The notes: generated by a model not told the origin, from the letters alone. A stretch of 64,000 bases of DNA from Candidatus Multivoradales bacterium (GCA_965223155.1 CBDCVR010000014.1:736001-800000); one strand, 5' to 3'; positions 3,836 to 58,228 are shown, numbered from the stretch's first letter. Numbers and translations are program-made.

Positions 3836-3928
3836 GGCCGGGATTGTGCCACAGCAGATTCCTGGCTTGCCTCTTGCAGCCGATTCCCTTCGGCCGGCCG
3901 GCCCGCGAGTCCGGCTGCCGCAGGAAGC

Positions 3929-3934
3929 TACAAT
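3929..3934 (+). promoter_or_regulatory. putative -10 element TACAAT for the TPR gene
   Basis: Near-consensus -10 in the divergent intergenic region, ~42 nt upstream of ATG 3977. Confidence 0.35.
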
Positions 3935-3976
3935 GCGCGGGCGGCATCCGCCACTCGCCCGCCGAGGAACCCTCCA

Positions 3977-5671
3977 ATGCATCGAAGTCACCGCACCGTC
4001 TCGACGACTGGCCTGGCCCTGATGGCCCTGATGGCTCTGATGGCTCTGATGGCTCTGATCACCCCGCTCGCATGGTTCGCCCAGCCCGCGGCCGCCCAGC
4101 CGCTCGCCGAGCCGATGAGTGATGAGCGGGCGCGCAAGGTCGAGCGCGCCGTCGAGTTGGCGCAGCAGGGTCAGATCGACGCGGCCCGCGAGATCCTGAA
4201 CGGCATCGACACAAACTCCCTCGACGCGCCGGGGCAAGCCCTCATCGGCGCGATCTACGCCCAGATCGGTCCCCCGGCCCGAGCTCTCGAGCTCCTGGCG
4301 CCTCTCGCCGACGCCGCCGACGCCAACCCGGCGGTTCTCTACAACGCCGGGCGCGCGGCCTTCACCATGGGCCAGTTCGCCAGAGCGGAACGGTACTGGC
4401 AGCGGAGCGTAGACGTTCAACCCAACACTCCGGCTTCCCGGGAACTGGCCTTGCTCCGCGCACGGGACGGACGCTGCGATGCGGCCTATCCGGATCTGGT
4501 CTCCTGGCTGCGCGGCGGCGGCGACGAGCCGGAGGTCAAGCTAGTGTCCGCCCTGTGCGCCGTCCAGATGGAACGGCCTCCCGATGCCGAGGAGTTTCTA
4601 GCCGATCTTCCTCAGGAAGATCCTCGCGTCCAGTTGCTCCAGGGCAAGCTCCGCCTGCTGCGCTCCGATCCCGACGGCGCCATCGAGATCCTGGAAAAGG
4701 TCTTCCAGAACCATCCGCCGGCCATGGACTTGGACGTCCGACGCACCCTGGCCGACGTCTACTCGGCCACCGGCCGAGCCTCCCAGGCCGTCGACCTCCT
4801 GCTGGGCCAGGTCGAAGGGCGCCCGGACGCCGTCCTGCAGCTCGGGCTCGCTCAGTATCAGAGCGGCGACCTGGACGGGGCGCTGGCTACCCTCGAGCCC
4901 GCCGCGGCGGCGCTGCTGGCTCGCCTCCAGGCCGGTCAGCCCGCCGGCGAGTACCCCACGGCTCTCCTCATCGAATACGGCCGGTTCTTGGTGCTGGGCG
5001 GCCGCCATGCCGAAGCGCTTCCCTATCTCGAAACCGCTACCCAGGTGGTCCCGGACAGGAAGCAGGGCTGGCAGCAGCTAGGTCAAGCCCTGGCCGCGGT
5101 CGGTCGCCGGGACGAGGCGCGCGCCGCGCTCGACCAGTTCCAGAACATCGTCCAAAACGAGGTCCCTGGCTCGCTGCGCAACATCCGACTCAAGGGCGGC
5201 TTCGAGGATCCGGTCGATCGCGAGCTCCGCCGCGCGTACCTGCTGATGCTCCAGGATCAAGGCACCGAGGCACTCGAGATCGTGCAACGGGAAGCGCGGC
5301 TGGCCCCGAACGATCCCAGGCCCCGCTTGCTCGAGGCCCGCATCTACCTGGCGCTGGAGGACTTCGACGCCGCCGCGGCCACCGCCGACGCTCTCGTCTC
5401 CGGGCTTCCGGGCAACGCCGACGCCCTGTATATCCGCGGCACCACACGCATGGCGCGCCAAGACGTCGAGGGCGCCGAGAGCGACTTGCGTGGCGCTCTG
5501 GAGCTCCATCCGGAGCACACCGCCGCCCTCAATGATCTGGCCGTCCTGCTCATGGACACCGAGCGCGGCGAGGAAGCCCGCGGCCTCCTCGAACGAGCAC
5601 TCGAGATCCGTCCCGACGACGCTCTCGCGCGCGAAAACCTGGCCAAGCTCGACGCCGGCGGCTCGGGCTAG
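3977..5671 (+). CDS. secreted tetratricopeptide repeat (TPR) protein, full-length copy
   Basis: Signal peptide (…LMALITPLAWFAQPAAA) then many TPR-like helix pairs (ALELHPEHTAALNDLAVLL, ALEIRPDDALARENL). Confidence 0.85.
   Translation: MHRSHRTVSTTGLALMALMALMALMALITPLAWFAQPAAAQPLAEPMSDERARKVERAVELAQQGQIDAAREILNGIDTNSLDAPGQALIGAIYAQIGPPARALELLAPLADAADANPAVLYNAGRAAFTMGQFARAERYWQRSVDVQPNTPASRELALLRARDGRCDAAYPDLVSWLRGGGDEPEVKLVSALCAVQMERPPDAEEFLADLPQEDPRVQLLQGKLRLLRSDPDGAIEILEKVFQNHPPAMDLDVRRTLADVYSATGRASQAVDLLLGQVEGRPDAVLQLGLAQYQSGDLDGALATLEPAAAALLARLQAGQPAGEYPTALLIEYGRFLVLGGRHAEALPYLETATQVVPDRKQGWQQLGQALAAVGRRDEARAALDQFQNIVQNEVPGSLRNIRLKGGFEDPVDRELRRAYLLMLQDQGTEALEIVQREARLAPNDPRPRLLEARIYLALEDFDAAAATADALVSGLPGNADALYIRGTTRMARQDVEGAESDLRGALELHPEHTAALNDLAVLLMDTERGEEARGLLERALEIRPDDALARENLAKLDAGGSG
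4016..4060 (+). repeat. in-frame 9-bp tandem repeat (GCYCTGATG)x5 encoding ALM repeats in the signal peptide
   Basis: gccctgatg gccctgatg gctctgatg gctctgatg gctctgatc. Confidence 0.9.
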
Positions 5672-8600
5672 GGCAGCGGGGCTTCGAGTTCGATCCAGTT
5701 GATCTCGGCGCGCCGGTTGTTCTCGTTCCAGAGCTCATTGAACTTAACGATCCGAACGCGCACGTCCGAGTAGTCAGTCAAGCCCGAGGCCACCGAGGCC
5801 GGGATCGCAACCCGCATCGTCGATTCCTGGAAGTAGAGATCGCGGCCCCAGTACTTGAGGGTCGTGCCGCCCTGGAGCAGCACGATCCGAATCCGGACCG
5901 GCTCGTTATCGAGCGCCCGGCCGCGGACCCGAAGGACATGGCCTTCGTCGGTCCCGGGATCCGTCATCGAGGCCATCGCAAGGGTGAATGAGTCCGAGGT
6001 GCCGGCCGAGACCGAGGAGGTGACGACGTTCGTCAGATCATCGACCTGCTCGTGAACGGGTGTCGGCGAGAAGGAGTTGGTCGCGGTCGTACCGACAGCG
6101 GCCACCCGCTGGACGGGAGCGGAAACCTCGGGGACTCGAAACTCGACCTCAAACAGCTCGGCCCGACGATCCGAGTTGTTGCCCGTGATCTCATGGAACT
6201 TGACCACCTTAATCTGAACGTCGCCGTAGTCTTCGAGATTCGTGGCGGCTTCGGGAGGTATGGCGACTACCGCGACCGACTCCTCGAAGCCGAACTCGAG
6301 GTTTTGGTAGGTCAGCGAGGTGCTTCCCCGCATCAGGTGCACGCGCAAGGTCACCGGGGCGTTGTCGAGTGCCCGGGCCCGGACGTGGATCTCGTGCCCG
6401 AGATCGGTGTCAGGATCGCCCATCGGAGCCATCCGAACCGTCAGAGCATCGCTCATACTGGTACCAGCCGTCATGCGGGAGGTCACGAAGTTGGTGGGAT
6501 CGTCGAGCTGATCATGGACCGGCTCCGAAGAAGTCCAGTTCGAGCTCACCGTGGCGACCGGATAGGCGCGCCAGGCCTCGAACGTGAGGGCCGCCGGATC
6601 CGACAGGGCTTGTCCGTAGTCGCTCGAGGCCAGGCACCGGTAGGTGCCCGCGCTCGAGGCGTCGACGTTCCGAATCGTAAGCTGGGTAGTCGCGGCGCCT
6701 TCGATGCTGGCATCATCGGCCAGATCCGCGCCGTCTTTCTGCCAAAGATACGAGAGGGTGCCATCGCCCGTCGCCGCGCACGAGAAGCTCGCCTCTCCGC
6801 CGGCGATCGCCGTCGCCGGGGCCGGCTGGCTCGTCACCTGCGGCGGGTTTCCGATAACGAGACTCGCCGAGGCCGACACGGCCTCGCCAAAGCCGTTCGC
6901 CACCCGGCAGGCATACCCGCCGGCATCGGACGCGACCAGACTCGAAACCGTCACGCTTGGAGTCGCTGAGCCCGTCACTCGGGCTCCATCCACGAGCTCG
7001 ACACCGTTTCGGAGCCACTCGTAGCTGAGTGGCTCCGTGCCCGAGGCCGAGCAAGAAAAGGTGGCGCTCGTGCCGACAAGGGTCGAGACGCTTGCGGGAC
7101 TTGTGGTGACTATTGGCGCTGACCCGACCGAGACCAAGGCCTGAGCCGAGATCGCCTCGCCCCAGTCGTTGGCGACGCGGCAGCTGTACTGTCCGGAATC
7201 GCTCCCAACTGCGTTGGAGATCGTCAAGGCTTGAGTCGAAGCGCCCGTGACACGGCCGCCGTCCACAATCGCCTGCCCGTCTTTGTGCCAGGAGTAGGCC
7301 AAAGGCTTCGTCCCGGCTGCGAGGCAGGACAACGAAACGGAGGAACCTTCGGACACGGCCTGAGGTGCCGGCCCTTCGGTCAGATGCGGCCGAACGGCGA
7401 CGGTAAGCTCTGCGGGAGCCGAGATAGCTTCGCCAAACTCGTTCGAGACCTTGCACGAATACACCCCGGCGTCGCCGCTGGAAACCGAGTCGATTGTCAG
7501 CACAGGGGTCTCGGCTCCCGGAATGCCCTCGTCGCACAGCGACACGCTGTCCCGCCACCAGCAGACGTAGGCGGGATGGTCGCTGTAGTAGTCACAGGTC
7601 AGCGAAACCGATTGCCCGGCCAGAACCGTTTGATCCACCGGCTGGTAGGTCAGCACCGGGGCATGCTCGTTGTCCGCCGGAGGTGCCGCGCCGTTGCACA
7701 GGACGGTGCGCTCGGTGCCTTCCGTGCCCATATTGGAGTTGAAGCCGGCAGACGAGTCGGCGTTGACACGGACTCGCGTGGGCTCGGCGGGGATTGCATA
7801 GGGAATGTCGACCGTTACGGTGCCGCCAGGAGGAACGGGACCGACGGCGCCGAGATCCGCCTCCACGAAAATGGGATCGTGGGTCGCGTTCCACACGCTG
7901 GCCCGAAGCTTGTAGCCCTCCTCGAGCGTCCATATGGACGTACCGTCGTTGAGGAAGGAAACCGTGAACGTGTAGTCGGTGCCGCATTCGAGTACCGGCG
8001 GCACCGGCCCAATTGAAATCTGCGCGGAATCCCTGCTAGCGACCTCCTGCGATTCGAGGAGCAGCGCCTCCCCGGAGTGCAAACTCAGGATGGCATTCGT
8101 GGCCAAGACAACGGTCCCGTCGCCGGCCCAGAAGAGAAACGCCGGCACCATAACCGCCCGATCGGCCGCGAGATCGATGACGTAGGTTGTATCTCGGTAG
8201 GCTTTGACACTTCCCCGGACCGCTATCTTGGAGTCGTCAACCCACCACCAGCCCCCCTCGTCCCAGAGCGGATAGAGGCGGCCGTCCTCGAAAACGGCCA
8301 GCGTCTCGACTAGATTCTCCCCCGTGGCCGCAGAAAAGACCCCACCGAAGCCCTCGAAAAGACCTGTCTCGAGGTAGTAGGTACCGTCCGGCGAAAGCCC
8401 GTCGAGATGAGGAGACAGATCCGTGGACGGACTCCAGACGCCGCCGCTGTCTCGTTCGAGACGCACATCAGACTCATAGAGGGGCCGGACCACCAGCGTC
8501 CCCCCAGACTCCCAGAGCACCTCATCGCCGCCATCCAGCATTGCTTCGACCACCCACCCATCGATCGTCACCACAGCGGTCTGGCGGTTGATGAATCCCT

Positions 8601-9018
8601 CTTCGGTGTAATCCCCCAGGACGAGCGCAAGGTGTCTCGAATCGGGCGCCCAGCTGTACTTGTAGACGCCGGTCATCGCAAACTGCTGGGTGCCTGTCTC
8701 CGAATCGAGGACTCTAAGATGGTCCAGACCCTCGACAAACGAAACGAACTGGCCGTCCGGTGAAATACCAGGACGCTTGATGCCGTCCTCGGTGCACCGC
8801 CAGAACACTTCGGGCGGCTCCCCTGGTCGTTGCTGATAAAGCACACTGCGCTCGAAGGCCGCATCTTCGGGGACGAGCTGTTGGGATACCTCGGTCGGAA
8901 TTGCGACTCCGAAGCCAACCACTGGGCTCCATTCTGAGGGCCAGGCCGACGCGCAACTGCCCAGGGCAATGAGGAAATAGGCGGCGTAACCTTGCCTTTG
9001 TCGGGAATTCTGCATCAT
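5668..9018 (-). CDS. gene B1: secreted protein, TolB/WD40-like beta-propeller + NBR1-Ig-like + 4 Ig (I-set-like) + duplicated C-terminal domain; putative cognate immunity/partner
   Basis: Signal peptide; ISPDGQFVSFV, WAPDSRHLAL and LSPDGTYY propeller motifs; four C..W..DxGxYxC Ig repeats; ATGA overlap with A1 stop. Confidence 0.8.
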   Translation of the reverse strand: MMQNSRQRQGYAAYFLIALGSCASAWPSEWSPVVGFGVAIPTEVSQQLVPEDAAFERSVLYQQRPGEPPEVFWRCTEDGIKRPGISPDGQFVSFVEGLDHLRVLDSETGTQQFAMTGVYKYSWAPDSRHLALVLGDYTEEGFINRQTAVVTIDGWVVEAMLDGGDEVLWESGGTLVVRPLYESDVRLERDSGGVWSPSTDLSPHLDGLSPDGTYYLETGLFEGFGGVFSAATGENLVETLAVFEDGRLYPLWDEGGWWWVDDSKIAVRGSVKAYRDTTYVIDLAADRAVMVPAFLFWAGDGTVVLATNAILSLHSGEALLLESQEVASRDSAQISIGPVPPVLECGTDYTFTVSFLNDGTSIWTLEEGYKLRASVWNATHDPIFVEADLGAVGPVPPGGTVTVDIPYAIPAEPTRVRVNADSSAGFNSNMGTEGTERTVLCNGAAPPADNEHAPVLTYQPVDQTVLAGQSVSLTCDYYSDHPAYVCWWRDSVSLCDEGIPGAETPVLTIDSVSSGDAGVYSCKVSNEFGEAISAPAELTVAVRPHLTEGPAPQAVSEGSSVSLSCLAAGTKPLAYSWHKDGQAIVDGGRVTGASTQALTISNAVGSDSGQYSCRVANDWGEAISAQALVSVGSAPIVTTSPASVSTLVGTSATFSCSASGTEPLSYEWLRNGVELVDGARVTGSATPSVTVSSLVASDAGGYACRVANGFGEAVSASASLVIGNPPQVTSQPAPATAIAGGEASFSCAATGDGTLSYLWQKDGADLADDASIEGAATTQLTIRNVDASSAGTYRCLASSDYGQALSDPAALTFEAWRAYPVATVSSNWTSSEPVHDQLDDPTNFVTSRMTAGTSMSDALTVRMAPMGDPDTDLGHEIHVRARALDNAPVTLRVHLMRGSTSLTYQNLEFGFEESVAVVAIPPEAATNLEDYGDVQIKVVKFHEITGNNSDRRAELFEVEFRVPEVSAPVQRVAAVGTTATNSFSPTPVHEQVDDLTNVVTSSVSAGTSDSFTLAMASMTDPGTDEGHVLRVRGRALDNEPVRIRIVLLQGGTTLKYWGRDLYFQESTMRVAIPASVASGLTDYSDVRVRIVKFNELWNENNRRAEINWIELEAPLP

Positions 9019-12000
9019 GGGTCACATTTCAGCTCAAGAGCTGTCTGCGGTTGCCGGAAACCGATATGTAAGTGATGGTGGTGCTGGTCGTTCTCGTATT
9101 TGTAGACGCCGTCTGGAAAGATTGGACAGATGTCTTTGAGTCTGCTGCGGTCGTCGACGATGACCTTTCTTATCAAGCCGCCTGGTGAGTTCTTCTGGAG
9201 GAGGGTCAGGAATAGGCAGGTTGCCTCCGGGTCGAACACCTGATCAGCGTATCGCCAGTCGAACGAAAAACTCTTCTCGTTCGTGTTCTTGAAGTACCTC
9301 ATGTCAATGTCCAGTCCATTCTGGTGGTCGAAGTGGGGGGGGGCCGAACCTCCACGTATCTTGCTAAGGTCGTTGAACATCGGCCGAATCTCACCGACGA
9401 AGTCCGTATCAGTGGGGACCGTTGGGTTGTCGAAGCCCTCGGCGGTGGCCGTGATCCATTTGATAACTGACCACGCACAGCTGTAGTCCTCTTCTTCCCA
9501 GCCGCCGTAGCGACCCCAGTGCTCGCTGGTGCCGAGTGCTGAGGAATTCACCAGGCATCCATTGCTACGGGTGCCGATGTGGTGGCAGGCGGTGCAGGAG
9601 CCGCTGACATGGGGACCGAGGTCCACTCCCGTGTCGAAGGGCGAGAACCCCGTGCCGGAGGCGCTGGCGAAAAGCCGCGTTTCGGTACTTCCGCCGGCAC
9701 AGCCACATCTTTGGGGCAACTGCACCTGGACCGTGCGGCGTCCGGTACGCGGGGGCCACTCGGGATCGCCCTCGATGATGGTCACGTCGACGACTCGGAC
9801 GCATTCGTCTTCGGTCCCAACCGACAAGGCATTCAGCTCGCCACTGGGCTCGGTTTCGTTTTCAAACGTTGGCCCTTCGAAGCCATAGCACCAGAGACCC
9901 GAAATCGACCAGCCTCTTACTAGCGGTATCGTTCCCCGGGTTTCGTAGTTGGCGCAGATCTCGAGATCGATCGCAAACTCGAAGACATTGTCACTGTTGA
10001 ACGGATCGATTAGAACGCAGCCTACGAGAGACCCTTCGATCTCGAGTCGTGCAATGACGTGAAGTACATTGAGTTCGAGGAACTTCTCGGCCCCGGGTAG
10101 CAGACTGACGACTTCCGACGGCGCCATGTCCGCAAGCGACTCCAGGTCCTTCCATAGAGTCTGGGACTCGTCAAAGTCCAAGATGTTGTATCGGTAGTTC
10201 TTGGAGTAGCAGCCACTCAAGATACTTCCGGTAGGGAGCGTGACGTCCGGCTGGAGCAATGTCTCCGTAGGTCTTGGGGCCTGAAGCCGAACGCCTGTGC
10301 CGCCGATGAGCGTCTCGGCGACCGATGCCGTTGCCGTACTGCCACCTACCGTCAGCGGCAGCCGAACGCTGCCTTCGGAAGTGGTCACAACCAGTTCGGA
10401 GGCTCCCAAAGATGCTCCGTGGGTAACAGCAAGCGTTGCAAGGACCCCGTTCGGAGCGGTTCTGACGCTGTGAAACCGAAGGCCGCTCCCGCTCACCGAA
10501 AGCGTTGCACCCGAGAGATTCGCGCCGGCGATCTGAAGGAGGTACTGTCGGCCGCGCGCCACTTCACTGGGCGTGTACGAGTCAACCACAGGTCCCTTTG
10601 GAAGGATTCTCACGAGAGCGAAGTCGATACCTCCGTCGGTTGCGACAGCGAGGGCCTTGAAGCCGACGTCTGCGGACCGTGCGTCGATATCTAAGGTCAG
10701 CTGACTCGCAGAAGAAGAAACCGACGCCACCGAGGGCAGCCCTTTGTTGGCACCACCCGGGAGCCCGAACGAGACATCGGCACCTTGGAGATTTCCACCG
10801 GACAGGGTCGTCCGGGTAACCGCACCTTGGGGCACGACGATCAAAGCATCTGTCAGAGTTGGTGATCCGGCAGTCGGATTCGTGACTTGGATTGCGGAAG
10901 CGTCGAGCTCGCCAAAGCGGGTCCCGCTCGTAGTTTCCATTTGCCAACGGACAGAGTAGTAGCCAGGGACCGCTGAGCCGGGGATCGTGACCTCGAAGAC
11001 GAACGAGTGCGAGCCAGATTCGTCGATCTGTGCACCTGCCGGCAGCTCCACGCTCGCCGGAAAAAAGTCGAGGTCGGTGTCGACGGCCAGCCGATGGGTG
11101 CCGGCCTGCCAAGTCGAGGTACCGTTGTTGGCAACACTTACTGAGATCGTATGGGTCGAACCGAGTGCCATCGGAGACGGAACGTTGGCCGAGACGATGT
11201 CGGCGTCGTTGGCTCCCGTCTGGCAGGTCACCTCGATGGGATGAGAGACGACGCCGCCGAACCAGGCGACGCCCTCGTTGACCATCTGCCACTCCGTCCC
11301 ATAGCTTCCGGGCTGCGACGGCGCGGTCAAGGCGACCGAGAACGAATGCTGGGATTGCGGGGCGATCGAGGCGCTTGTGGGCAGCTGAACCCGAGTCGCA
11401 TCGGCCCGGAACGGGTCGCTTCCTCCCGTCGGGCCTAGTTTGTAGCCGTCCGCCCGTGTCCAGACCGTGTCGCCCGTGTTCTTCATCGTGACGGCATAGG
11501 TCCCCACTTCGCCACAGGCCATCTGCGACGGCAAGTTGTGACCAACAGCCTGGGCAGCGTCTTGACAGGTCACGGTGATGGTCTTCGAGACCTTCTCGCC
11601 GAACCACTGCCCGTTCTCGACCATCTGCCACTCAGTGGTGAGAGTCGTTGCCGTCTCGGGCGCTACCAGCGAGACGTCGAAGGTGTGGGAGTCGTTCTCT
11701 TCGATCGCGAGGCTCGCCGGCAGGTGGACCCGGGCGCCGCTCGGGTTGAAGGGATCGGTATCCCCGGGAACCCCCAGTTGATGACCGCCGGCAGCGGTCC
11801 AGGGCTTCGAGCCGCCGTTGCGAAGCGTTATCTCACGAACCAGGGTCGAGCCGCAGGTCATGGAATCGGGCAGGGTGTCCGAGACCCGGGTGGCAGCGTT
11901 GACGCAATCAACGTCGATCCTGGCAGTCACGAGCGGGCCAAAAGGCTCGCCGTTGTGCTCCATCTGCCAGAGGGTCATGACGTCGTTCTGGTGGGTGTCG

Positions 12001-12752
12001 CTCGGGGCCTGGAGGGGAACCTTGAAAGGGTACTGGCCTCCGCCGCGACCGACCGTGACATTGCTCGGCAAGCGCACCGGAGCGCCGGACGGGTTGAACG
12101 CGTCGCTCGTGCCCACGTTGGCGAGATAGAACCCAGCCGCGTCGGTCCAGTCGGTCGAGCCCATGTTCTGGAGCGTCACCGTGGCTTCGTCTTCCGAAGA
12201 GCAGTTCATCGCCGCCGGGAACACCTCGGCGGCGAGGACCGCGTGATCCCCACAGACGACGTTGATGTCCTTGAAGACGATCGAACCGAACCATTCGACC
12301 CCCTGCTCGGCCATCTGCCACTCCGTGCGCACGACGCCGTGGACGTCCGGGGCGGTCAACTCGACGGTGAACGTGTGCCGCTGTCCCGGAGCGATGGTCG
12401 TGCCTACGGGGAGCCGGACCTTGTTGCCGTTCGGCCGAAACGGATCGTCGTTGTCCGTGACCCCGAGCCGGTGCCCGTTCGTACCGTCCTCGGTCCAGTC
12501 GCCCGTACCGACGTTCTCGAGCCGAATCGTGAACGACTCGGTGTCGCCGCAGTACATCGCGTCCGGCAGGTTCTGCGAGACGACAAGAGCATCATTGACG
12601 TCGGCGCCGACCGGCGGATCCTCTGGCCCCGGGTCGGGCTCCTGGGCGGTGGCGACCGCGGCTGCCGCGAGCACGGCTGCGCAGGCTCGCCCGATTCTTC
12701 GGTATCGGCGGGAGGGGCTAGCCTTCTGTCGTCCCATCCCAACCCACTCCAT
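9015..12752 (-). CDS. gene A1: secreted protein, 5 NBR1-Ig-like repeats + 2 IPT/TIG-like + C-terminal MepA-like (M74/LAS) murein endopeptidase; putative polymorphic toxin
   Basis: Repeats NxGxxxWT...F...LxAP...WQM...FG; C-terminal IGTRSNGCL, NDLSKIRGG, HFDHQNGLDID, HHHHLHIGF. True start may be ATG 12737. Confidence 0.8.
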   Translation of the reverse strand: MEWVGMGRQKASPSRRYRRIGRACAAVLAAAAVATAQEPDPGPEDPPVGADVNDALVVSQNLPDAMYCGDTESFTIRLENVGTGDWTEDGTNGHRLGVTDNDDPFRPNGNKVRLPVGTTIAPGQRHTFTVELTAPDVHGVVRTEWQMAEQGVEWFGSIVFKDINVVCGDHAVLAAEVFPAAMNCSSEDEATVTLQNMGSTDWTDAAGFYLANVGTSDAFNPSGAPVRLPSNVTVGRGGGQYPFKVPLQAPSDTHQNDVMTLWQMEHNGEPFGPLVTARIDVDCVNAATRVSDTLPDSMTCGSTLVREITLRNGGSKPWTAAGGHQLGVPGDTDPFNPSGARVHLPASLAIEENDSHTFDVSLVAPETATTLTTEWQMVENGQWFGEKVSKTITVTCQDAAQAVGHNLPSQMACGEVGTYAVTMKNTGDTVWTRADGYKLGPTGGSDPFRADATRVQLPTSASIAPQSQHSFSVALTAPSQPGSYGTEWQMVNEGVAWFGGVVSHPIEVTCQTGANDADIVSANVPSPMALGSTHTISVSVANNGTSTWQAGTHRLAVDTDLDFFPASVELPAGAQIDESGSHSFVFEVTIPGSAVPGYYSVRWQMETTSGTRFGELDASAIQVTNPTAGSPTLTDALIVVPQGAVTRTTLSGGNLQGADVSFGLPGGANKGLPSVASVSSSASQLTLDIDARSADVGFKALAVATDGGIDFALVRILPKGPVVDSYTPSEVARGRQYLLQIAGANLSGATLSVSGSGLRFHSVRTAPNGVLATLAVTHGASLGASELVVTTSEGSVRLPLTVGGSTATASVAETLIGGTGVRLQAPRPTETLLQPDVTLPTGSILSGCYSKNYRYNILDFDESQTLWKDLESLADMAPSEVVSLLPGAEKFLELNVLHVIARLEIEGSLVGCVLIDPFNSDNVFEFAIDLEICANYETRGTIPLVRGWSISGLWCYGFEGPTFENETEPSGELNALSVGTEDECVRVVDVTIIEGDPEWPPRTGRRTVQVQLPQRCGCAGGSTETRLFASASGTGFSPFDTGVDLGPHVSGSCTACHHIGTRSNGCLVNSSALGTSEHWGRYGGWEEEDYSCAWSVIKWITATAEGFDNPTVPTDTDFVGEIRPMFNDLSKIRGGSAPPHFDHQNGLDIDMRYFKNTNEKSFSFDWRYADQVFDPEATCLFLTLLQKNSPGGLIRKVIVDDRSRLKDICPIFPDGVYKYENDQHHHHLHIGFRQPQTALELKCDP

Positions 12753-12868
12753 CGTTGGTCACGGGCTGGAATGCGTTGGCGGACGACGACTCGCGGCTCA
12801 GAAAGCCCTGAGAGCGACGGGCTCGCGCCGCCGGAGAACCGACACAACCATTACCAACCACGGAACAC

Positions 12869-12897
12869 AGGGTAGTGGCAACCGTTGTGATTCGCAA
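12869..12897 (-). promoter_or_regulatory. putative sigma70-type promoter of A1-B1 operon (TTGCGA-N17-TACCCT)
   Basis: Minus strand TTGCGA atcacaacggttgccac TACCCT. Boxes and 17-nt spacing are kept in all three copies while the spacer sequence differs in copy 3. Confidence 0.55.
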
Positions 12898-13040
12898 GTC
12901 AATTTCAAGGCGAAGCCCCAAACGGCCCGACATCCTGAAGCCGAATCGGATGGGGTGAAGACAGGTCGAGCCCGAAACGGCGGCCCTTCCTAGCGCCGTA
13001 TTCGACCGGCGGCGGCCGGGCCGCCCGAGCATCGCAAGCG

Positions 13041-13922
13041 GTGGACCTCTTGCTGGGCCGCGTCGAAAGCCGACCGGACGCCGTTTTGCAGCTCGGGCTC
13101 GCCCAGTATCAGAGCGGCGACCTGGACGGGGCGCTGGCTACCCTCGAGCCGGCCGCGGCGGCGCTGCTGGCTCGCCTCCAAGCCGGTCAGCCCGCCGGCG
13201 AATACCCCACGGCTCTCCTCATCGAGTACGGCCGCTTCCTGGTTCTGGGCGGCCGCCATGCCGAAGCGCTCCCCTATCTCGAGACCGCTACCAAGGTGGT
13301 CCCGGACAGGAAGCAGGGCTGGCAGCAGCTAGGTCAAGCCCTGGCCGCGGTCGGCCGCCGGGACGAGGCGCGAGCCGCCCTCGACCAGTTCCAGAGCATC
13401 GTCCAGAACGAGGTTCCCGGATCGCTACGCAACATCCGGCTCAAGGGCGGCTTTGAAGATCCCGTCGATCGCGAGCTCCGCCGCGCGTACCTGCTCATGC
13501 TCCAGGATCAAGGCGCCGAAGCGCTCGAGATCGTGCAACGGGAGGCTCGCCTGGCGCCCGAGGATCCCCGACCCCGCTTGCTCGAAGCCCGCATCTATCT
13601 CGCCCAAGAGGACTTCGACGCCGCGGCGGCCGCCGCCGAGGCTCTCGTCGCTGGACTTCCGGGTAACGCAGACGCCCTCTACATCCGCGGCACCACGCGC
13701 ATGGCGCGGCAGGACATGGAGGGCGCCGAGAGCGACCTGCGCAACGCCCTCGAGCTCCATCCCGAGCACACCGCCGCCCTCAACGACCTGGCCGTCCTGC
13801 TCATGGACACCGACCGGGGCCAGGAAGCTCGCGGCCTCCTGGAACGAGCGCTCGAGATCCGTCCCGACGACACCCTCGCGCGCGAGAACCTGAACAAGCT
13901 CGACGCCGGCGGCTCGGGCTAG
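13041..13922 (+). pseudogene. 5'-truncated duplicate of the TPR gene (C-terminal 293 aa); frame intact, no signal peptide
   Basis: Matches the C-terminal half of 3977..5671 with scattered substitutions (TQV>TKV, QNI>QSI, NDP>EDP) and many synonymous changes. The GTG start is an internal Val codon of the parent gene. Confidence 0.7.
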
Positions 13923-16831
13923 GGCAGCGGGGCTTCGAGTTCGATCCAGTTGATCTCGGCGCGCCGGTTGCTCTCGTTCCAGAGCTCATTGAACTTGACG
14001 ATCCGAACGCGCACGTCCGAGTAGTCAGTCAAGCCCGAGGCCACCGAGGCCGGGATCGCAACCCGCACCGTCGACTCCTCGAAGTCGAGATCGCGGCCCC
14101 AGTACTTGAGGGTCGTACCGCCCTGGAGCAGCATGATCCGAATCCGGACCGGCTCGTTATCGAGCGCCCGGCCGCGGACCCGAAGGACATGGCCTTCGTC
14201 GGTCCCGGGATCCGTCATCGAGGCCATCGCAAGGGTGAATGAGTCCGAGGTGCCGGCCGAGACCGAGGAGGTGACGACGTTCGTCAGATCATCGACCTGC
14301 TCGTGAACGGGTGTCGGCGAGAAGGAGTTGGTCGCGGTCGTACCGACAGCGGCCACCCGCTGGACCGGAGCGGAAACCTCGGGAACCCGAAACTCGACCT
14401 CTACGAGCTCGGCCCGGCGGTCCGAGTTGTTGCCCGAGATCTCATGGAACTTGACCACCTTGATCTGGACGTCGCCGTAGTCTTCGAGATTCGTGGCGGC
14501 TTCGGGAGGTATGGCGACTACCGCGACCGACTCCTCGAAGCCGAACTCCAGGTTCTGGTAGGTCAGCGAGGTGCTTCCCCGCATCAGGTGCACGCGCAAG
14601 GTCACCGGGGCGTTGTCGAGCGCCCGGGCCCGGACGTGGATCTCGTGCCCGAGATCGGTATCCGGGTCGCTCATCGGGGCCATGCGGACCGTCAGAGCGT
14701 CGCTCAGGCTGGTGCCGGCGGTCATGCGGGAGGTCACCACGGTGGTGGGATCGTCGAGCTGGTCATGGACCGGCTCCGAGGAGATCCAGTTCGAGCTCAG
14801 GGTCTCGACCGGATAAGCGCGCCAAGACTCGAAGTCGAGGGCCGCCGGATCCGACAGGGCTTGTCCGTAGTCGCTCGAAGCCAGGCACCGGTAGGTGCCC
14901 GCGCTCGAGGCGTCGACGTTCCGAATCGTAACCTGGGCAGTCGCGGCGCCTTCGATGCTGGCATCATCGGCCAGATCCGCGCCGTCTTTCTGCCACTGAT
15001 ACGAGAGGGTGCCATCGCCCGTTGCCGCGCACGAGAAGCTCGCCTCTCCGCCGGCGATCGCCGTCGCCGGGGCCGGCTGGCTCGTCACCTGCGGCGGGTT
15101 TCCGATAACGAGACTCGCCGAGGCCGACACGGCCTCGCCAAAGCCGTTCGCCACCCGGCAGGCATACCCGCCGGCATCGGACGCGACCAGACTCGAAACC
15201 GTCACGCTCGGAGTCGCTGAGCCCGTCACCCGGGCTCCATCCACGAGCTCGACACCGTTCCGCAGCCATTGGTAGGCGAGTGGCTCTGTCCCCGAGGCCG
15301 AGCAGGAAAACGTGGCGTTGGCGCCGATCGCGGACTCCACCGACGCCGGTTCGCCGGCGATCGCCGGAGGGTCGCCGACGGTCAGTTGCGCTGGGACCGA
15401 CTCCGCGGAGCCCCAGTCGTTGCTTACGTGGCACCGATAGCTGCCCGAGTGATCCGCGGCGACGGCCGCGAACTGAAGAGACGGAGAGGCGGTGCCCGAC
15501 AGAGTCGCGGTGTCCGAAAGCGCGGCATCGTCTTTCGTCCAGGTGAAGGCTAGCGGTCCGGTGCCCGTGGCGGTGCAAGCGAGAGTGAAGCTGGAACCGG
15601 TGGCGACTGAAGCTGCGGCCGGGCCGGCCGTAATCGACGGCGCACTACCCACCCGAACGAGTGCCGGATTCGAGGTGATGATCCCCCACTCGTTGGACAC
15701 GCCACACACGTACTCTCCGGCGTCTTCGCTCTGGACGGACTGGATGGTCAAGGTCGCCGTCGCGGTGCCCTGGAGCGTTGCTCCCGTGCCAGACGGGCCG
15801 TCCTCGAGGGCGACGCCGTCCTTGACCCAGTGATAGGTCAACGGCTCGCCGCCGGAAGCCGAGCAGGACAGGAGCCCCGTGGACCCTACGACCGCGTTGA
15901 TGGACGCCGGGTGGGTGACGATCTCGGGGTGCTTCTCGAAGCGCTCGATGCGTCCCAAGGCGGAGGAGGCTTGGGCGCGGACCTCTCCGATAGAGCTGCT
16001 TGCGATCAGGTCTCGCAGAGCCGCCTTGGTCTCCTCGTCGGCGATGCCGATGTCTCCAAGGGCTTGCGCCGCCCTGATCCGATGGCTGCTCTCAGGGTCG
16101 CTGAGCTCGGCGCGGAGAGCGTCGAGGACCTCCTGCGGTGGTTCGGGTACCGGGCCTTCGAGCGACGGCCTCCGGAACATCTGGCCCAGGGCGGTAACCG
16201 CCGCGTAGTCGGTCCGATCGTCGGCGCAGCGCAGGACGAGCTCGCCGACGACCAGTGCGTCCCGAGGCCGGATCGCCGCCAGGGCGAGGGCGGCCGGCTT
16301 CAAGACGGATTCGTCCGTCTCGATTTCGAGAACGGCCGCGATCGGCGCAAACGCGTCGACGGAAAGACCCGGCCAGTTCGCGAGGGCATAGAACAGGGTC
16401 TCTCTAACGCCAGCATCCGGGTCCGACAGGTAAGCGGTTACGTCCTCAAGATGCGAGTCAAGCTTCACCAGATTGGAAGGAGCATGCGTTGCCTGCATCT
16501 CACTGGCGCCGTAGAACACCGGACCCTTGTTCAGCATGATGGCCTTGTAGAAACCATGGGCGGCGGCGCCTCTGACGGCCGGATCCGGATCCTCCATCAG
16601 AGACGCGACGAGCGTCCAGGTTTCTTCATAGTGGTCCAGCCAGTAGGCGAAGATCTCCTCGTCCATGGCAGCCAGGCCGGCTAGGCGCGTCTCAGGATCG
16701 TCGGAAGCAAACGCGATCGCGATCGTCTCAACGAGATCGGTGGCCGAGCCCCAAACTGGGTTGCACGTCAGGCTAGCCACAATGATGGATCCGACCGCGA
16801 GGACTCGAGTCACCGAAAGGCGGACGGTCAT
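13919..16831 (-). CDS. gene B2: secreted protein, HEAT-repeat N-terminus + 4 Ig domains + duplicated C-terminal domain; putative cognate immunity/partner
   Basis: Start ATG 16831 (ATGA overlap with A2 stop) or 16840; signal peptide; HEAT motifs DPDPAVRGAAA, DPDAGVRETL, DPESSHRIRAAQALG, EVRAQASSALG; C-terminal part shared with B1/B3. Confidence 0.8.
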   Translation of the reverse strand: MTVRLSVTRVLAVGSIIVASLTCNPVWGSATDLVETIAIAFASDDPETRLAGLAAMDEEIFAYWLDHYEETWTLVASLMEDPDPAVRGAAAHGFYKAIMLNKGPVFYGASEMQATHAPSNLVKLDSHLEDVTAYLSDPDAGVRETLFYALANWPGLSVDAFAPIAAVLEIETDESVLKPAALALAAIRPRDALVVGELVLRCADDRTDYAAVTALGQMFRRPSLEGPVPEPPQEVLDALRAELSDPESSHRIRAAQALGDIGIADEETKAALRDLIASSSIGEVRAQASSALGRIERFEKHPEIVTHPASINAVVGSTGLLSCSASGGEPLTYHWVKDGVALEDGPSGTGATLQGTATATLTIQSVQSEDAGEYVCGVSNEWGIITSNPALVRVGSAPSITAGPAAASVATGSSFTLACTATGTGPLAFTWTKDDAALSDTATLSGTASPSLQFAAVAADHSGSYRCHVSNDWGSAESVPAQLTVGDPPAIAGEPASVESAIGANATFSCSASGTEPLAYQWLRNGVELVDGARVTGSATPSVTVSSLVASDAGGYACRVANGFGEAVSASASLVIGNPPQVTSQPAPATAIAGGEASFSCAATGDGTLSYQWQKDGADLADDASIEGAATAQVTIRNVDASSAGTYRCLASSDYGQALSDPAALDFESWRAYPVETLSSNWISSEPVHDQLDDPTTVVTSRMTAGTSLSDALTVRMAPMSDPDTDLGHEIHVRARALDNAPVTLRVHLMRGSTSLTYQNLEFGFEESVAVVAIPPEAATNLEDYGDVQIKVVKFHEISGNNSDRRAELVEVEFRVPEVSAPVQRVAAVGTTATNSFSPTPVHEQVDDLTNVVTSSVSAGTSDSFTLAMASMTDPGTDEGHVLRVRGRALDNEPVRIRIMLLQGGTTLKYWGRDLDFEESTVRVAIPASVASGLTDYSDVRVRIVKFNELWNESNRRAEINWIELEAPLP

Positions 16832-19800
16832 TCGGAACATGGGATCGTCCCTTCTATGCGGCCGGTGACTACTTCCCGGGTGCGGTTTGCTAGGCACCTG
16901 AAGAACTCAAGGGGTGGGATCGTCGCCGGACGGGTCGCGGGATAGTGATGGACAAGTTCGTCTGCTACGTAGACCTCGTGTGCCGGGACACAGTCATGCT
17001 GACCCTCGAGGGCCCAGGTCAGAGAGCCGTCTGCATTGCGGCGCAGGGTCATATCGTAGTAGTAGCGGATCGGCGGAGCGAAGAACAACAAGGGATCGCT
17101 GGCTTCTCCGCTGATTCTCAGCGCTAGCAATCCCCCGGCCGACACCTCAGATTTCACCTGCATCTGTCCGATGTCAGCGCGGCCGTGGCGGTTGAAAAGG
17201 TAGCAGTCCCTCTCCTTGTTATCGTAGTCGCCTCCGTTCTCGGGCAGCCGAAAATCGACGCGTCCGTCGCCCTCCAGAGTCGAATCCTTGTGAAACTCCA
17301 TTGTCGGGCCGGCGGAAGGGAAGTTCGCGACGTGAAAGTCGGAAGAGTCAAGATCGACTCGAATGATCTGCTGGGTTCGGTACTTTTCCTTTCGGGTCGG
17401 ATGATTCGTCCCCGGGTGCTCCGGAAGCCCAACCGTTACCGGATCGCTTTCCAGCCATCGGTCATCTCCAGTGTGGATCGTGGTCTGAGGGACAGGCAGG
17501 ATAGGTGGCGTACACAGACCGACTCCGACCGGCAGATCCACATAGTTCGTCGGGATGAAGGTCCTGATCTCGATCTCCACCTCTTCGCCGGTACAGGACG
17601 TGGCACAGGTGACGTGGGTGTCCGCGACGTCCTCGTCCCCGGTGTCGAAGTCCGTAAAGCCGCTGCCGATGGCGCGGGCGCTGAGGACGCCGTCTCGGGG
17701 AGCGCTCTGCTGGCAGCCGCACTCCCTGGGAATGGCGACTTCCACCCGCTTGACGCCGGTGGGCGGACGGTTGGGATCTTCAGGTTCTCCATCCACGATC
17801 GAGATCTCGACAACCTTGACACAGGCATCGCTGTGGCGCACGGAGAAGGACTCCATGTCTCCGGTGGGCTCGGTCTCGGTCGGAGGCTCTTCGCGCTGGA
17901 CTCCGAAACACCATTCCTTGGTGAACATGTAGCCCCGCACCAGCGGGATCGTGATGCGGGCTTCCGCCCGGATGCAGAGATCGATGTTGTAGCCCCACTC
18001 GAAGGTCCCGGTGAGCGGTTCAAAGAAGACGCAGACGACGACGGCCCCCTCGACCTCGATCCGGGCATGGGTCTGCAGAACGGTCGCGTCAAGAACCCGT
18101 CCGATCTCGGGAACAAGATTGACCACATCGCCGGGCAGAACCGCGGCCGCCGTCTGCAGGTCCTCGAGAATCAGTTGCGTCGAAGTGTGATTGATGACGT
18201 TGTAGCGGAAGTTCTTGTCGTAGCAACCCGCGAAGAAGGCGTTTTCCGGAATCGTCGATTTGGGATTCGTAAAGTCCCCGTAGGTCGCGGGCGTCTGGAA
18301 GCGTGCGCCTCCGAGGGTCCGAGTCGCCGGAGAGCCACCGGACAAAGATGCAAGCACGCGGAGCGGAAGGCTGACGGAGCCGGCCGACGTCATGACCGAC
18401 AGTTCGCGCTCGCCGGTCGACGCGTCATCCTCCACGGACAGGACAGCCGATATCCCATTGGTTTCGGCGTGGACCGAGTGGAGCTGAATGCCAGAGCTGG
18501 AAGTGGAAATCGAGCCGCCACCTAGATTCGCACCAACGATGTGAAGCACGTAGGTCTCACCTCGGGCGACCTCGCTCGGTGTGTAGGTGTCCACCACCGG
18601 TCCGGGAGCAAGGACGCGGACGAGTGCCGACTCAACGCCACCGGCGGTCTCGATCGTCAGGACATGAAAGCCGGTCTCGGTCGCCCCTCGAGTATCGACG
18701 TCGAAGGCCAGCTGCTGGCCGGACGAAGTCACGGCGCTGGCGAGGGGAGTGCTCGCCGGATCGCCGGTCGCCGGCCGGGCAAAGGAGACCTCGGCGCCCG
18801 AGAGGCCCGATCCCGTGAGACTGGCGCGCGTCACCGCTCCCAGGGGCACGACGATGAGCTCGGAGTCAACCATCGGCAGGGCAGTGGACGGATCGACGAC
18901 CTTGACCACAGTGCTCTCGGTCTCGCCGAACGCGTCTCCGCTCACCGTCTCCATCTGCCACTGGATGACTTGGTTGCCTAGCGTTGCCGTCGTCGGGATC
19001 GTGACCTCGAAGACGAACGAGTGCGAACCAGATTCGTCGATCTGTGCACCTGCCGGCAGCTCCACGCTCGCCGGGAAGAAGTCGAGGTCGGCGTCGACGG
19101 CCAGCCGATGGGTGCCGGCCTGCCAAGTCGAGGTGCCGTTGTTGGCAACACTTACTGAGATCGTATGGGTCGAGCCGAGTGCCATCGGAGACGGAACGTT
19201 GGCCGAGACGATGTCGGCGTCGTTGGCCCCCGTCTGGCAGGTCACCTCGATGGGATGAGAGACGACGACGCCGAACCAGCCGACGCCCTCGTTGACCATC
19301 TGCCATTCCGTCACATAGCTTCCGGGCTGCGACGGCGCGGTCAAGGCGACCGAGAACGAATGCTGGGATTGCGGGGCGATCGAGGCGCTTGTGGGCAGCT
19401 GAACCCGAGTCGCATCGGCCCGGAACGGGTCGCTTCCTCCCGTCGGGCCTAGTTTGTAGCCGTCCGCCCGTGTCCAGACCGTGTCGCCCGTGTTCTTCAT
19501 CGTGACGGCATAGGTCCCCACTTCGCCACAGGCCATCTGCGACGGCAAGTTGTGGGCCAAGGCCTCTGCACCGTCCTGACAGGTCACGGTGATGGTCTTT
19601 GAGACCTTCTCGCCGAACCACTGCCCGTTCTCGACCATCTGCCACTCGGTGGTGAGAGTCGTTGCCGTCTCGGGCGCAACCAGCGAGACGTCAAAGGTGT
19701 GGGAGCCGTTCTCTTCGATCGCGAGGCTCGCCGGCAGGTGGACCCGGGCGCCGCTCGGGTTGAAGGGATCGCTGTCTCCGGTGACGCCCAATTGATGACC

Positions 19801-21054: not shown

Positions 21055-21936
21055 GTGGACCTCTTGCTGGGCCGCGTCGAAAGCCGACCGGACGCCGTTT
21101 TGCAGCTCGGGCTCGCCCAGTATCAGAGCGGCGACCTGGACGGGGCGCTGGCTACCCTCGAGCCGGCCGCGGCGGCGCTGCTGGCTCGCCTCCAAGCCGG
21201 TCAGCCCGCCGGCGAATACCCCACGGCTCTCCTCATCGAGTACGGCCGCTTCCTGGTTCTGGGCGGCCGCCATGCCGAAGCGCTCCCCTATCTCGAGACC
21301 GCTACCAAGGTGGTCCCGGACAGGAAGCAGGGCTGGCAGCAGCTAGGTCAAGCCCTGGCCGCGGTCGGCCGCCGGGACGAGGCGCGAGCCGCCCTCGACC
21401 AGTTCCAGAGCATCGTCCAGAACGAGGTTCCCGGATCGCTACGCAACATCCGGCTCAAGGGCGGCTTTGAAGATCCCGTCGATCGCGAGCTCCGCCGCGC
21501 GTACCTGCTCATGCTCCAGGATCAAGGCGCCGAAGCGCTCGAGATCGTGCAACGGGAGGCTCGCCTGGCGCCCGAGGATCCCCGACCCCGCTTGCTCGAA
21601 GCCCGCATCTATCTCGCCCAAGAGGACTTCGACGCCGCGGCGGCCGCCGCCGAGGCTCTCGTCGCTGGACTTCCGGGTAACGCAGACGCCCTCTACATCC
21701 GCGGCACCACGCGCATGGCGCGGCAGGACATGGAGGGCGCCGAGAGCGACCTGCGCAACGCCCTCGAGCTCCATCCCGAGCACACCGCCGCCCTCAACGA
21801 CCTGGCCGTCCTGCTCATGGACACCGACCGGGGCCAGGAAGCTCGCGGCCTCCTGGAACGAGCGCTCGAGATCCGTCCCGACGACACCCTCGCGCGCGAG
21901 AACCTGAACAAGCTCGACGCCGGCGGCTCGGGCTAG
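21055..21936 (+). pseudogene. second 5'-truncated TPR duplicate, same protein sequence as 13041..13922
   Basis: Same 293-aa translation, offset 8014. Confidence 0.7.
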
Positions 21937-32671: not shown

Positions 32672-32802
32672 CAGTCAGAAGGAATGAGTGAGACGCCGAA
32701 ATCGGTGTCGGGTTGCCGTGGCGGCTCGACGCTCGCCCGGCTCAGGAGCGATCTTTGCACGAAATCTGCCAGTGGCCCGGGGCCGGGCCGGTACGAACCC
32801 CT

Positions 32803-35403: not shown

Positions 35404-35528
35404 GCACGCTCGCATCCTCCGGGGGAGCGCGCGCGAAGCTCCAACCCGGAGGGCCGCCAGCTCATGCTCGCTTTCGAGCGGCCTCGACGCGAATTCCCCG
35501 TCCCGTTCGGAGGATAATGGAGCCACCC

Positions 35529-58174: not shown

Positions 58175-58196
58175 GAATCCGACTCAGTATACGAAG

Positions 58197-58228
58197 CAGG
58201 GCGGCCACCCGTCTAGGCGGCCGCCCTG
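58197..58228. terminator. GC-rich inverted repeat between lipoprotein genes (possible terminator or mRNA-stabilising hairpin)
   Basis: CAGGGCGGCC...GGCCGCCCTG; no long U-tract. Confidence 0.4.

Follow-up and report, generated by a model that had tools for sequence, protein, structure and literature searches.

The minus strand of a 64,000-nucleotide stretch from Candidatus Multivoradales bacterium (GCA_965223155.1, CBDCVR010000014.1:736001-800000; called here the window, with positions counted from its first letter) carries three tandem cassettes, in each of which a long gene A precedes a long gene B. The locus raises the question of what the B proteins are for. The first of them, B1, consists of a variable head placed on an immunoglobulin (Ig) stalk, and it had been proposed to be either a tethered antidote or the binding subunit of an AB-type complex. 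In our reading, B1 is an exported partner, and most likely the immunity (inhibitor) protein, of the Sec-exported polymorphic toxin A1. We assign this reading a probability of about 0.6. The positions of the features are collected in Table 1.

The genome assembly (4.0 Mb in 15 contigs, 98.66% complete) contains five A-B pairs in total. Three of them are located in the window, the fourth (A4/B4) on contig 15, and the fifth (A5/B5) at the end of contig 14. The A proteins have a constant N-terminus and a variable C-terminal tip, and the B proteins have a variable N-terminal head and a constant C-terminus. The tip type matched the head type in 5/5 pairs, at three separate genomic places: an M74-like tip goes with a propeller head (3/3; pairs 1, 3, and A5/B5) and a DUF3238-like tip with a HEAT head (2/2; pair 2 and A4/B4). 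Within a type, the tip/head identities were 60/60% for pair 1 vs. 3, 36/35% for 1 vs. 5, 38/32% for 3 vs. 5, and 53/46% for 2 vs. 4. The 60% values correspond to 122/204 positions for the A1 and A3 tips and 250/420 for the B1 and B3 heads. Across the cassette types, neither the tips nor the heads could be aligned. The ratio of nonsynonymous to synonymous substitution rates was unsuitable here, since synonymous sites are saturated at 60% protein identity. The A5/B5 pair (contig 14: 1325332-1331880, locus L028) reaches the contig end, and B5 shows a frame change in its Ig region (overlap 1330984-1331492), which may be an assembly problem in repeated Ig DNA.

The pairing of tip and head was then followed in other genomes. 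A profile of the tip alignment was searched against public genome contigs, which gave 40 loci (435 kb), and a hidden Markov model (HMM) of the propeller, built from B1, B3, and B5 only, was run on all six-frame open reading frames (ORFs) of these loci. In 20 of the 40 tip loci, the ORF that directly follows the tip gene on its own strand proved to be a head-homologous propeller (E 2e-13 to 2e-5). These 20 loci hold 22 pairs, with two tandem pairs each in L034 and L057. The loci span at least seven phyla (Myxococcota, Nitrospirota, Acidobacteriota, Ignavibacteria, Gemmatimonadota, Zixibacteria, and Marinimicrobia) as well as unclassified bacteria. Altogether, 24 propeller matches were obtained in the 435 kb: 22 directly downstream of a tip, one behind a tip fragment, and one elsewhere. 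The same HMM, run on the organism's own 4.0-Mb genome, found the three B heads, one weak match, and nothing more. Weaker propeller matches were seen with the full-head HMM in three loci (L044, L059, and L045). The outside partner ORFs are about 325-470 residues long, begin directly at the M74 stop codon or within a few bases of it, and contain no Ig or carbohydrate-binding module (CBM) part. An N-terminal hydrophobic signal was present in 18/18 standalone partners vs. 1/18 internal control segments. Pfam recognised in these partners at most weak PD40 repeats, and 2/21 passed the cut-off (22.2 and 24.6 bits). Head homologues are placed directly behind tip homologues, and the head is therefore regarded, on this sequence evidence, as the conserved partner of the tip and most likely as a periplasmic immunity domain.

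The closest natural relative of the A-B pair is locus L032 from an Acidobacteriota metagenome-assembled genome (MAG; JBCCXL010000003.1). Its carrier, P0012, has 1683 residues with nine NBR1-Ig domains and an M74 tip (32.6 bits), and the overlapping downstream ORF encodes an exported 409-residue propeller of the B-head family. The NBR1-like Ig, the I-set stalk, and the CBM-like pair are all missing from this partner. The tandem M74-propeller pairs mentioned above lie at L034:5320-9226 (an Ignavibacteriaceae MAG) and L057:5370-8385 (an unclassified MAG); L057 also has a third, unpaired propeller on the opposite strand (11721-12659). In nine loci assigned to Actinomycetota (L055, L056, and L060-L066), we observed a separate M74-like branch of 257-301 residues that is always followed by a 262-268-residue ORF with hydrophobic segments, and these ORFs may be a different partner family.

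For the reverse test, a profile was built from 18 propellers of the family and run against 400 further genomes from the phylum. Among the 401 genomes, the organism's own included, 213 had matches at E<=1e-6, mostly generic PD40 peptidases at 33-53 bits; the tally includes one unpublished genome (G004, a generic match), on which no claim rests. Only one genome, G626, had a full-length family propeller (193 bits, with the next best at no more than 53 bits), and in that genome an M74 tip ORF (E 7.6e-65) lies 1.75 kb upstream of the propeller on the same strand. A 333-residue ORF (6474-7472), perhaps a second partner or else an insertion, sits between the two genes (L119:5476-9180).

The enzymatic nature of the tip was assessed by profile comparison. 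The profile of the three tips (A1, A3, and A5) spans the whole MepA core of 1tzp (E 1.1e-3), and the tip motifs HQNGLD-x-D and H-x-x-H-x-H align with HQTGLDVD and HMH of MepA. The residues of the H-x6-D and H-x-H motifs (H118, D125, H202, and H204 in tip numbering) were invariant in 14/14 aligned sequences, and we take them to be the zinc ligands. The A1 and A3 tips most likely represent a diverged M74 branch. A HMMER search of 1.84 billion representative proteins with the tip returned 316 relatives at E<=1e-3, nine of them at E<=1e-10. All nine scanned tip-carrying ORFs from outside loci were above the Pfam M74 cut-off (28.1-53.7 bits), as were P0012, P0020, and P0104 (30.8-32.6 bits). The tip domain was at or near the C-terminus in six of the seven long relatives scanned by Pfam; in P0013 (3664 residues), the M74 domain is internal and appears in four stretches. 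The long carriers include an RHS protein with DUF6531 (P0020), the protein with nine NBR1-Ig repeats from L032 (P0012), one with eight InlB-B repeats (L049), and the Big/propeller proteins P0038 (Big_5 plus LVIVD) and P0104 (2513 residues). Polymorphic toxins in their textbook form have an RHS carrier. The distribution of the tip is sporadic: it was detected in 6/300 other genomes of the class (E<=1e-5), and it was not found in the one other searched genome of the genus (G015). In nine loci (L029, L031, L035, L040, L042, L046, L050, L053, and L059), we noted many short M74 carriers with a lipoprotein-like signal (a Cys behind the hydrophobic run), followed by a proline-rich linker, TSP3-like calcium-binding repeats (D-x-D-G-D-G-I-S-N), and the peptidase domain.

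The B1 ORF is open throughout, starts with ATG, and encodes 1116 residues. The B1 ATG overlaps the TGA stop of A1 (junction CC-ATGA-TG), which indicates that A1 and B1 are translationally coupled. Residues 1-25 of B1 comprise basic residues followed by a hydrophobic run (mean Kyte-Doolittle value of 1.84 over 12 residues) and are read as a putative Sec signal. All of B1-B5 and A1 carry such an N-terminal hydrophobic signal. The L-G-S-C stretch at residues 19-22 of B1 could pass as a relaxed lipobox; no Cys is present there in B3 and B5. The head (residues 27-334) matched no Pfam family at E<=5, and the PD40 (PF07676) cut-off of 20.9 bits was not reached. The profile of the B1, B3, and B5 heads matched the propeller of an S9 peptidase (8wt1, E 8.8e-7), and also acyl-peptide hydrolase, DPP-IV, and WD40 proteins. 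An AlphaFold 2 model of B1 residues 27-450 resembled the YVTN propeller-PKD structure 1l0q (E 3.8e-12) and TolB 7mx5 (E 6.2e-8). PD40 proteins were also neighbours of the head in the ESM Atlas, which we treat as a lead only. NCBIfam and PHROGs offered no family for the B head or the terminal domains.

The region behind the propeller (B1 residues 335-450) scored 13.2 bits (E 0.14) with Pfam N_BRCA1_IG (PF16158), below the 28-bit cut-off. The NBR1-like Ig of B5 matched the NBR1 repeats of A (BLASTP 5.5e-8), and columns 298-416 of the head profile matched all nine NBR1 repeats of the L032 carrier (1.4e-12 to 6e-4). The stalk was recognised by Pfam I-set (PF07679) in four stretches, with E 1e-54 and 183 bits against a cut-off of 23.7, and B2 and B3 likewise showed four I-set stretches (E about 1e-54). 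The Ig block also matched titin 3b43 (E 4.6e-53) and two phage Ig and tail proteins. Each of the four B1 Ig domains contains a Cys...Trp...Cys core, with the cysteine pairs 475/522, 565/613, 656/704, and 747/795. These results agree with the sequence-only reading on every point of structure: it had described B1 and B3 as a signal, propeller, NBR1-Ig, four Ig domains with canonical I-set-like Cys-Trp-Cys cores, and two terminal domains, and B2 as the same with a HEAT head and without the NBR1-Ig (HEAT_2 E 1.2e-17; I-set). Its further statements, that the B1 and B3 propellers diverged as much as their MepA-like tips and that the constant-variable order of A is mirrored in B, likewise held in the comparison of paralogues.

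The last 298 residues of B are two mutual repeats (819-970 and 971-1116) sharing a DP-x-TD-x-GHE motif. Pfam, NCBIfam, and PHROG gave no CBM family for these domains by sequence, and a phmmer search of the pair against the PDB sequences returned nothing meaningful. A structure model of the pair was closest to an alginate-binding CBM (8zqf, Z 11.5), CBM4-2 (4bj0, Z 11.3), and BT0996-C (7zvo, Z 11.3), with a root-mean-square deviation (rmsd) of 2.8-2.9 Å across 120-135 residues for these three matches. Overall, many CBMs gave Z 10-11.5 (rmsd 2.8-3.3 Å over 113-139 residues), and 157 chains reached Z>=8. Foldseek matched the pair to the tandem CBM22 structure 4xup (5.9e-8) and to the surface glycan-binding SGBP-B 7kwb (2e-10). 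The model also resembles phage tail, receptor-binding, and CenC-like proteins, and its ESM Atlas neighbours are phage proteins of about 157 residues (score 0.95; a lead only). As modelled, the B terminal domains share the beta-jelly-roll CBM fold (CBM4, 22, 35, 36 type); such a fold is by itself no demonstration of sugar binding. Elsewhere in the genome, on contig 13 (L026:1188-9482), a 2765-residue ORF with NBR1-Ig, PKD, six I-set Ig domains, and LamG, and with neither tip nor head, holds two internal pairs of B-type CBM-like domains that are 43-44% identical to those of B1. The same stalk modules in a tip-less protein are therefore general building blocks in this organism.

The constant parts of the cassettes showed a pattern of recombination. 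Up to about residue 1045, A1 and A3 do not differ at all (100% identity), and beyond it they share 60% identity, and A2 is about 97% identical to A1 until about residue 590 and diverges beyond. B1 and B3 are 95-100% identical outside the heads and constant from Ig1 on, and B2, with its unrelated head, is near-identical to B1 from Ig3 onward. At the DNA level, the constant parts are 91-99% identical, and their grouping runs against the cassette type: A2 is 97.0% identical to A1 and 94.6% to A4, B2 is 98.6% identical to B3 and 93.8% to B4, and B1 is 97.0% identical to B4. Either the cassettes were exchanged or the arms were homogenised by recombination. Since B directly follows A, the A tip and the B head form one continuous variable block, and because this block lies between near-identical A and B stalks, homologous recombination can swap tip and head together. 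A variable block between two constant arms is a natural design for replacing a toxin and its antidote in one event.

The second cassette type was also followed outside this genome. Relatives of the A2/A4 tip were found in 4/400 other genomes of the phylum, above the Pfam DUF3238 cut-off (21.2-32.5 bits). In L086, the DUF3238 tip is followed by a 214-residue HEAT_2 protein (32.4 bits), which matched the B2 head with a BLASTP E of 0.058; in L088 it is followed by a multi-pass membrane protein, and in L085 by a 569-residue ORF without a family. An HMM of the B2/B4 HEAT heads detected no relative beside the outside DUF3238 tips. These loci lend weak support to the DUF3238-HEAT pairing and do not contradict it. 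A first metagenome scan for the A2/A4 tip found nothing; the sole locus of a second scan, L078, was rejected as a false match over ABC-transporter genes on the other strand.

Taken as a toxin-immunity pair, A1 and B1 would work as follows. The A1 tip would be an M74 (MepA-like, LAS-type) zinc endopeptidase that cuts peptidoglycan cross-links. A1 and B1 would be co-transcribed and translationally coupled, and both would enter the periplasm. There, the propeller head of B1, possibly with the adjacent NBR1-like Ig, would bind the cognate tip and block it, so that the producer and its sister cells would be safe from their own enzyme. The four I-set Ig domains would serve as a spacer, and the two CBM-like beta-sandwiches may tether the head to an envelope glycan (peptidoglycan strands or a surface polysaccharide), keeping the antidote at the toxin's site of action. 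Recombination between the A and B stalks would swap toxin and antidote as one block, with five cassettes of two types being kept. We favour this reading because an exported partner stands behind an exported peptidoglycan hydrolase, the distribution is sporadic, the copies are tandem and polymorphic, and related tips occur on RHS carriers. The sequence-only reading had the head grip the cognate tip and the stalk anchor it to the cell surface or target it to a receptor. Of this, the five pairs and the 20 outside loci support head and tip as a functional unit, in which the head would grip the tip, and the CBM-like fold of the stalk end fits an anchor or a targeting part. As to the choice between tethered antidote and binding subunit, the evidence leans to the tethered antidote because the outside partners, that of L032 included, are bare exported propellers without a targeting module. 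The stalk with the CBM-like pair would then be an addition specific to this genome, presumably a tether to envelope glycan. Complex prediction with the A-tip and B-head alignments gave a score of 0.00 ('no answer') in a run made without controls, and nothing is concluded from it.

Several observations weigh against the toxin-immunity reading. The A1 tip scored 21.5 bits (E 1.9e-4) and the A3 tip 17.7 bits with Pfam M74 (PF03411), below its 25-bit cut-off. The confidence of the structure models is moderate, with a predicted local distance difference test score (pLDDT) of 66.8 for the head and 71.2 for the terminal pair. The three-sequence propeller HMM also matches generic PD40 proteins through repeated matches to single blades; for this reason, family membership was judged by collinear full-length matches and by position. 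Seventeen of the 40 tip loci, mostly from Actinomycetota and with a membrane ORF of 264-268 residues downstream, have no propeller (one of them, L053, stops at a contig edge), and a HEAT partner was seen in one of the three outside loci with a C-terminal DUF3238 tip. Co-divergence is expected under any model for adjacent co-inherited segments, and the co-variation within this genome is by itself no proof of interaction because tip and head are inherited as one block. Many outside tip carriers are short lipoproteins of 250-430 residues, and these might be enzymes of the cell wall accompanied by a regulator rather than weapons. Finally, we know of no precedent for an immunity protein of more than 1100 residues with an Ig stalk, and the stalk may therefore point to a further role.

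Such a role is offered by the explanation that survives best beside our own, namely that the toxin is secreted as two proteins, with B1 as the subunit for targeting or carriage. The B1 head would hold, and perhaps silence, the tip, and its CBM-like pair would bind a glycan of the target cell, in the manner of the lectin spokes of Streptomyces umbrella particles or of colicins released with their immunity protein. The Sec signals on both proteins, the translational coupling of the genes, and the length and constancy of the stalk, as expected for a shared delivery part, all suit a carrier, as do the fold of the terminal domains, which recalls CBMs and phage tail or receptor-binding modules, and their phage-protein neighbours in the ESM Atlas (again a lead only). 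The lack of a detected sheath gene of a type VI secretion system (T6SS) in the 98.66%-complete genome points the same way. Umbrella toxins pair one polymorphic toxin with separate lectin subunits, according to the available parts of PMC13274773 and bioRxiv 10.1101/2025.04.24.650519. Nevertheless, we consider a carrier role unlikely. The partner in 20/40 outside loci, including L032, consists of an exported propeller alone and lacks any lectin or stalk; therefore, A-type toxins work elsewhere without the B stalk, and the conserved role of the head is not targeting. Moreover, the repeat stalk of A could itself bind targets, and the same CBM-like pairs are found within the unrelated 2765-residue surface protein. 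We hold equally doubtful a mirror-image two-gene swap system, in which the exchangeable tip and head block sits between constant arms and B is both antidote and glycan-binding carrier that exits bound to A, aims at a target glycan, and releases the tip. If true, this would be a Gram-negative two-protein counterpart of the umbrella toxins, with immunity and targeting in one polypeptide. The question thus raised is whether immunity is positioned in the envelope or doubles as a delivery part.

A second explanation, which we judge improbable, is that A and B are not weapons: A would remodel the cell wall as an endopeptidase, B would regulate it in the periplasm, much as housekeeping hydrolases are controlled by partners, and the pair would have been duplicated here. 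In its favour, MepA of E. coli (1tzp) has a housekeeping role as an endopeptidase of the periplasm, short exported lipoproteins make up many of the outside carriers, and both partners are periplasmic going by their signals. Remodelling, however, would not account for a tip found in 6/300 class genomes and not in the genus genome G015, nor for five paralogous pairs with strongly diverged or non-homologous tip and head cassettes on near-identical stalks; nor does it suit a tip that forms the end of an RHS protein and of further long carriers with repeats, and that occurs in tandem pairs in L034 and L057. The view that B is an adhesin or surface protein functionally unlinked to A, with a head that varies through its position in a recombination hot spot, can appeal to the co-divergence of linked segments through descent alone, to Ig and CBM-like modules typical of adhesins, and to the related giant surface protein of this genome, but it is very improbable, as it leaves unexplained both the head homologues behind tip homologues in 20/40 loci from at least seven phyla and the tracking of tip type by head type at three genomic places.

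Within the searches made, no other genome showed such a partner fused to an Ig stalk and a CBM-like pair. Word-index protein searches, which covered candidates of 613-1953 residues, found only B1 and B3 with the B1 head and only own-genome paralogues with the terminal pair; the one other result was a weak NBR1 match. In a family-profile search of proteins of 717-2045 residues, B1 and B3 were the only full-length matches (237-246 bits), and the remaining matches were generic WD40/PD40 proteins at low coverage. The terminal pair was absent from the 300 other genomes of the class that were searched. In the literature searched, which leaves out most subscription journals, we found neither an account of an M74 toxin paired with a propeller nor one of an immunity domain fused to an Ig/CBM stalk; both results are provisional. 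The available part of PMC7400221 remarks briefly that a MepA-related gene lies upstream of another, different gene, a putative homologue of T6SS immunity genes.

At the DNA level, the array is a tandem repeat with a unit of roughly 8 kb, which carries the last 900 bp of the neighbouring tetratricopeptide repeat (TPR) gene as a passenger. The sequence repeated upstream of A likely holds a putative promoter. All three A-tip/B-head junctions are bridged with zero differences by contigs of the public runs X1 and X2, which may stem from the same sample as the genome assembly (spans 7654-9681, 15922-19024, and 23919-25400, the last one continuing into A3); therefore, the junctions are not assembly chimeras. 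At position 9335, inside the A1 tip, one base is missing in one X2 contig (depth 2.7) and not in X1 or X3, which is probably an error of a thin contig.

Table 1. Features of the A-B cassette array in the window.
Feature	Position	Strand	Description
B1	5668..9018	-	Exported protein: signal, propeller, NBR1-like Ig, 4 I-set Ig, 2 CBM-like domains
B1 N-terminal export signal (putative), aa 1-25	8944..9018	-	Sequence reading and hydrophobicity
B1 variable head, PD40-type beta-propeller, aa 27-330	8029..8940	-	Family found downstream of M74 tips
B1 NBR1-like Ig, aa 335-445	7684..8016	-	In variable block, about 55-60% identical to B3
B1 stalk, four I-set Ig domains, aa 453-815	6574..7662	-	Pfam I-set, titin match
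B1 terminal domain 1, aa 819-970	6109..6564	-	CBM-like beta-sandwich, modelled fold
B1 terminal domain 2, aa 971-1116	5671..6108	-	CBM-like beta-sandwich (modelled), Z 10-11.5 to many CBMs
A1	9015..12752	-	Signal, 5 NBR1-Ig repeats, CARDB/IPT-like region, M74-like tip; stop overlaps B1 start
A1 variable tip, aa about 1040-1245	9018..9635	-	M74/LAS metallopeptidase-like; H-x6-D and H-x-H kept
Conserved region upstream of A, repeated along with cassettes	12753..12903	-	Candidate promoter region
B2	13919..16840	-	HEAT-repeat head, 4 Ig, same 2 terminal domains; likely start ATG 16840, ORF open from 16897
A2	16828..20766	-	N-terminus as in A1, diverged middle, DUF3238-like tip
B3	21933..25301	-	Propeller-type B1 paralogue; likely start ATG 25301, ORF open from 25397
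A3	25289..29053	-	Same as A1 until about aa 1045; the M74-like tip beyond shares 60% identity with the A1 tip
TPR ORF copy 1, 293 aa	13041..13922	+	Copy of 3' end of TPR gene ending at 5671
TPR ORF copy 2, 293 aa, identical to copy 1	21055..21936	+	Copy of 3' end of same TPR gene

In the parent TPR gene (2567-5671, plus strand), the TPR matches begin only at residue 589 of the 1034-residue ORF call. The first half of this ORF overlaps an FG-GAP/UnbV gene on the opposite strand (2006-4420), and the call is probably too long at its 5' end. The array is surrounded by FG-GAP/ASPIC-UnbV repeat proteins, some of them with TPR parts (9-2009, 2006-4420, 29268-32671, and 32713-39170). Further along the window, the minus strand encodes an 889-residue PilQ-like secretin with AMIN, STN, and Secretin_N (59945-62614). 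The genome has two secretins in all, and Ig/PKD/invasin-like ORFs (56813-59337) come after this one.

The cassettes can be compared with several known systems. According to the available text of Zhang et al. 2012 (PMC3482391), polymorphic toxins exported by the Sec route and a type II secretion system (T2SS) may carry repeat stalks, with a constant N-terminus, a variable C-terminal toxin, and a partner gene downstream. That text lists HEAT-repeat immunity proteins and states that Ig and beta-propeller domains had not then been found among immunity proteins; a whole-word search of it returned neither MepA nor 'murein'. The layout of the A carrier, the downstream partner, the paralogous cassette arrays, and the occurrence of the tip on RHS carriers are as in those toxins. 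Among the A paralogues, the N-terminus is likewise constant and the C-terminus variable, and the adjacent downstream partner co-varies with the tip. In contrast to those systems, the B partner is long and modular with a constant C-terminal stalk, and homology extends on both sides of the variable block. An antidote-type domain would thus be built into a modular protein of 1100 residues with a eukaryote-like I-set stalk and CBM-like anchors.

A similar combination is known from Pseudomonas aeruginosa, where Tsi1, a partial DPP-IV-like propeller, provides periplasmic immunity to the peptidoglycan amidase Tse1, as described in the available part of PMC3391265. By fold and description, A1-B1 resembles Tse1-Tsi1 in joining a putative peptidoglycan-cutting effector to an exported, all-beta, propeller-like partner. 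However, Tse1 is a papain-like amidase delivered by a T6SS, whereas A1 is an M74/LAS-type metallopeptidase, as predicted, with its own Sec signal, and Tsi1 is a small, partial propeller, whereas that of B is complete and continues into Ig and CBM-like modules. No VipB/TssC (PF05943) was found in the 98.66%-complete genome, with a positive control search in E. coli, and a Pfam scan detected no PAAR, VgrG, or Hcp part in A, which carries a Sec signal. With no T6SS sheath gene detected, A would have to reach its target by some other means.

E. coli MepA (PF03411, 1tzp) is matched by the A1, A3, and A5 tips over its whole core, with the motifs kept. MepA is a stand-alone housekeeping enzyme, and we know of no propeller partner of it; the tips, unlike MepA, are C-terminal modules of 1245-residue carriers, and that of A1 lies below the Pfam cut-off. 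An M74 endopeptidase with a downstream exported PD40 propeller is a widespread two-gene module, of which we found no description in print. Regarding the Streptomyces umbrella particles, the term 'beta-propeller' occurs 27 and 24 times in the available text of PMC13274773 and bioRxiv 10.1101/2025.04.24.650519, respectively. Compared by architecture only, both systems join a putative secreted polymorphic toxin to a glycan-binding-like subunit, and propellers are involved in both. Target choice in umbrella particles falls to the lectins, which are variable, and immunity resides in a separate protein. In the A-B cassettes, by contrast, the lectin-like end of B is constant, and it is the variable head that tracks the toxin tip.

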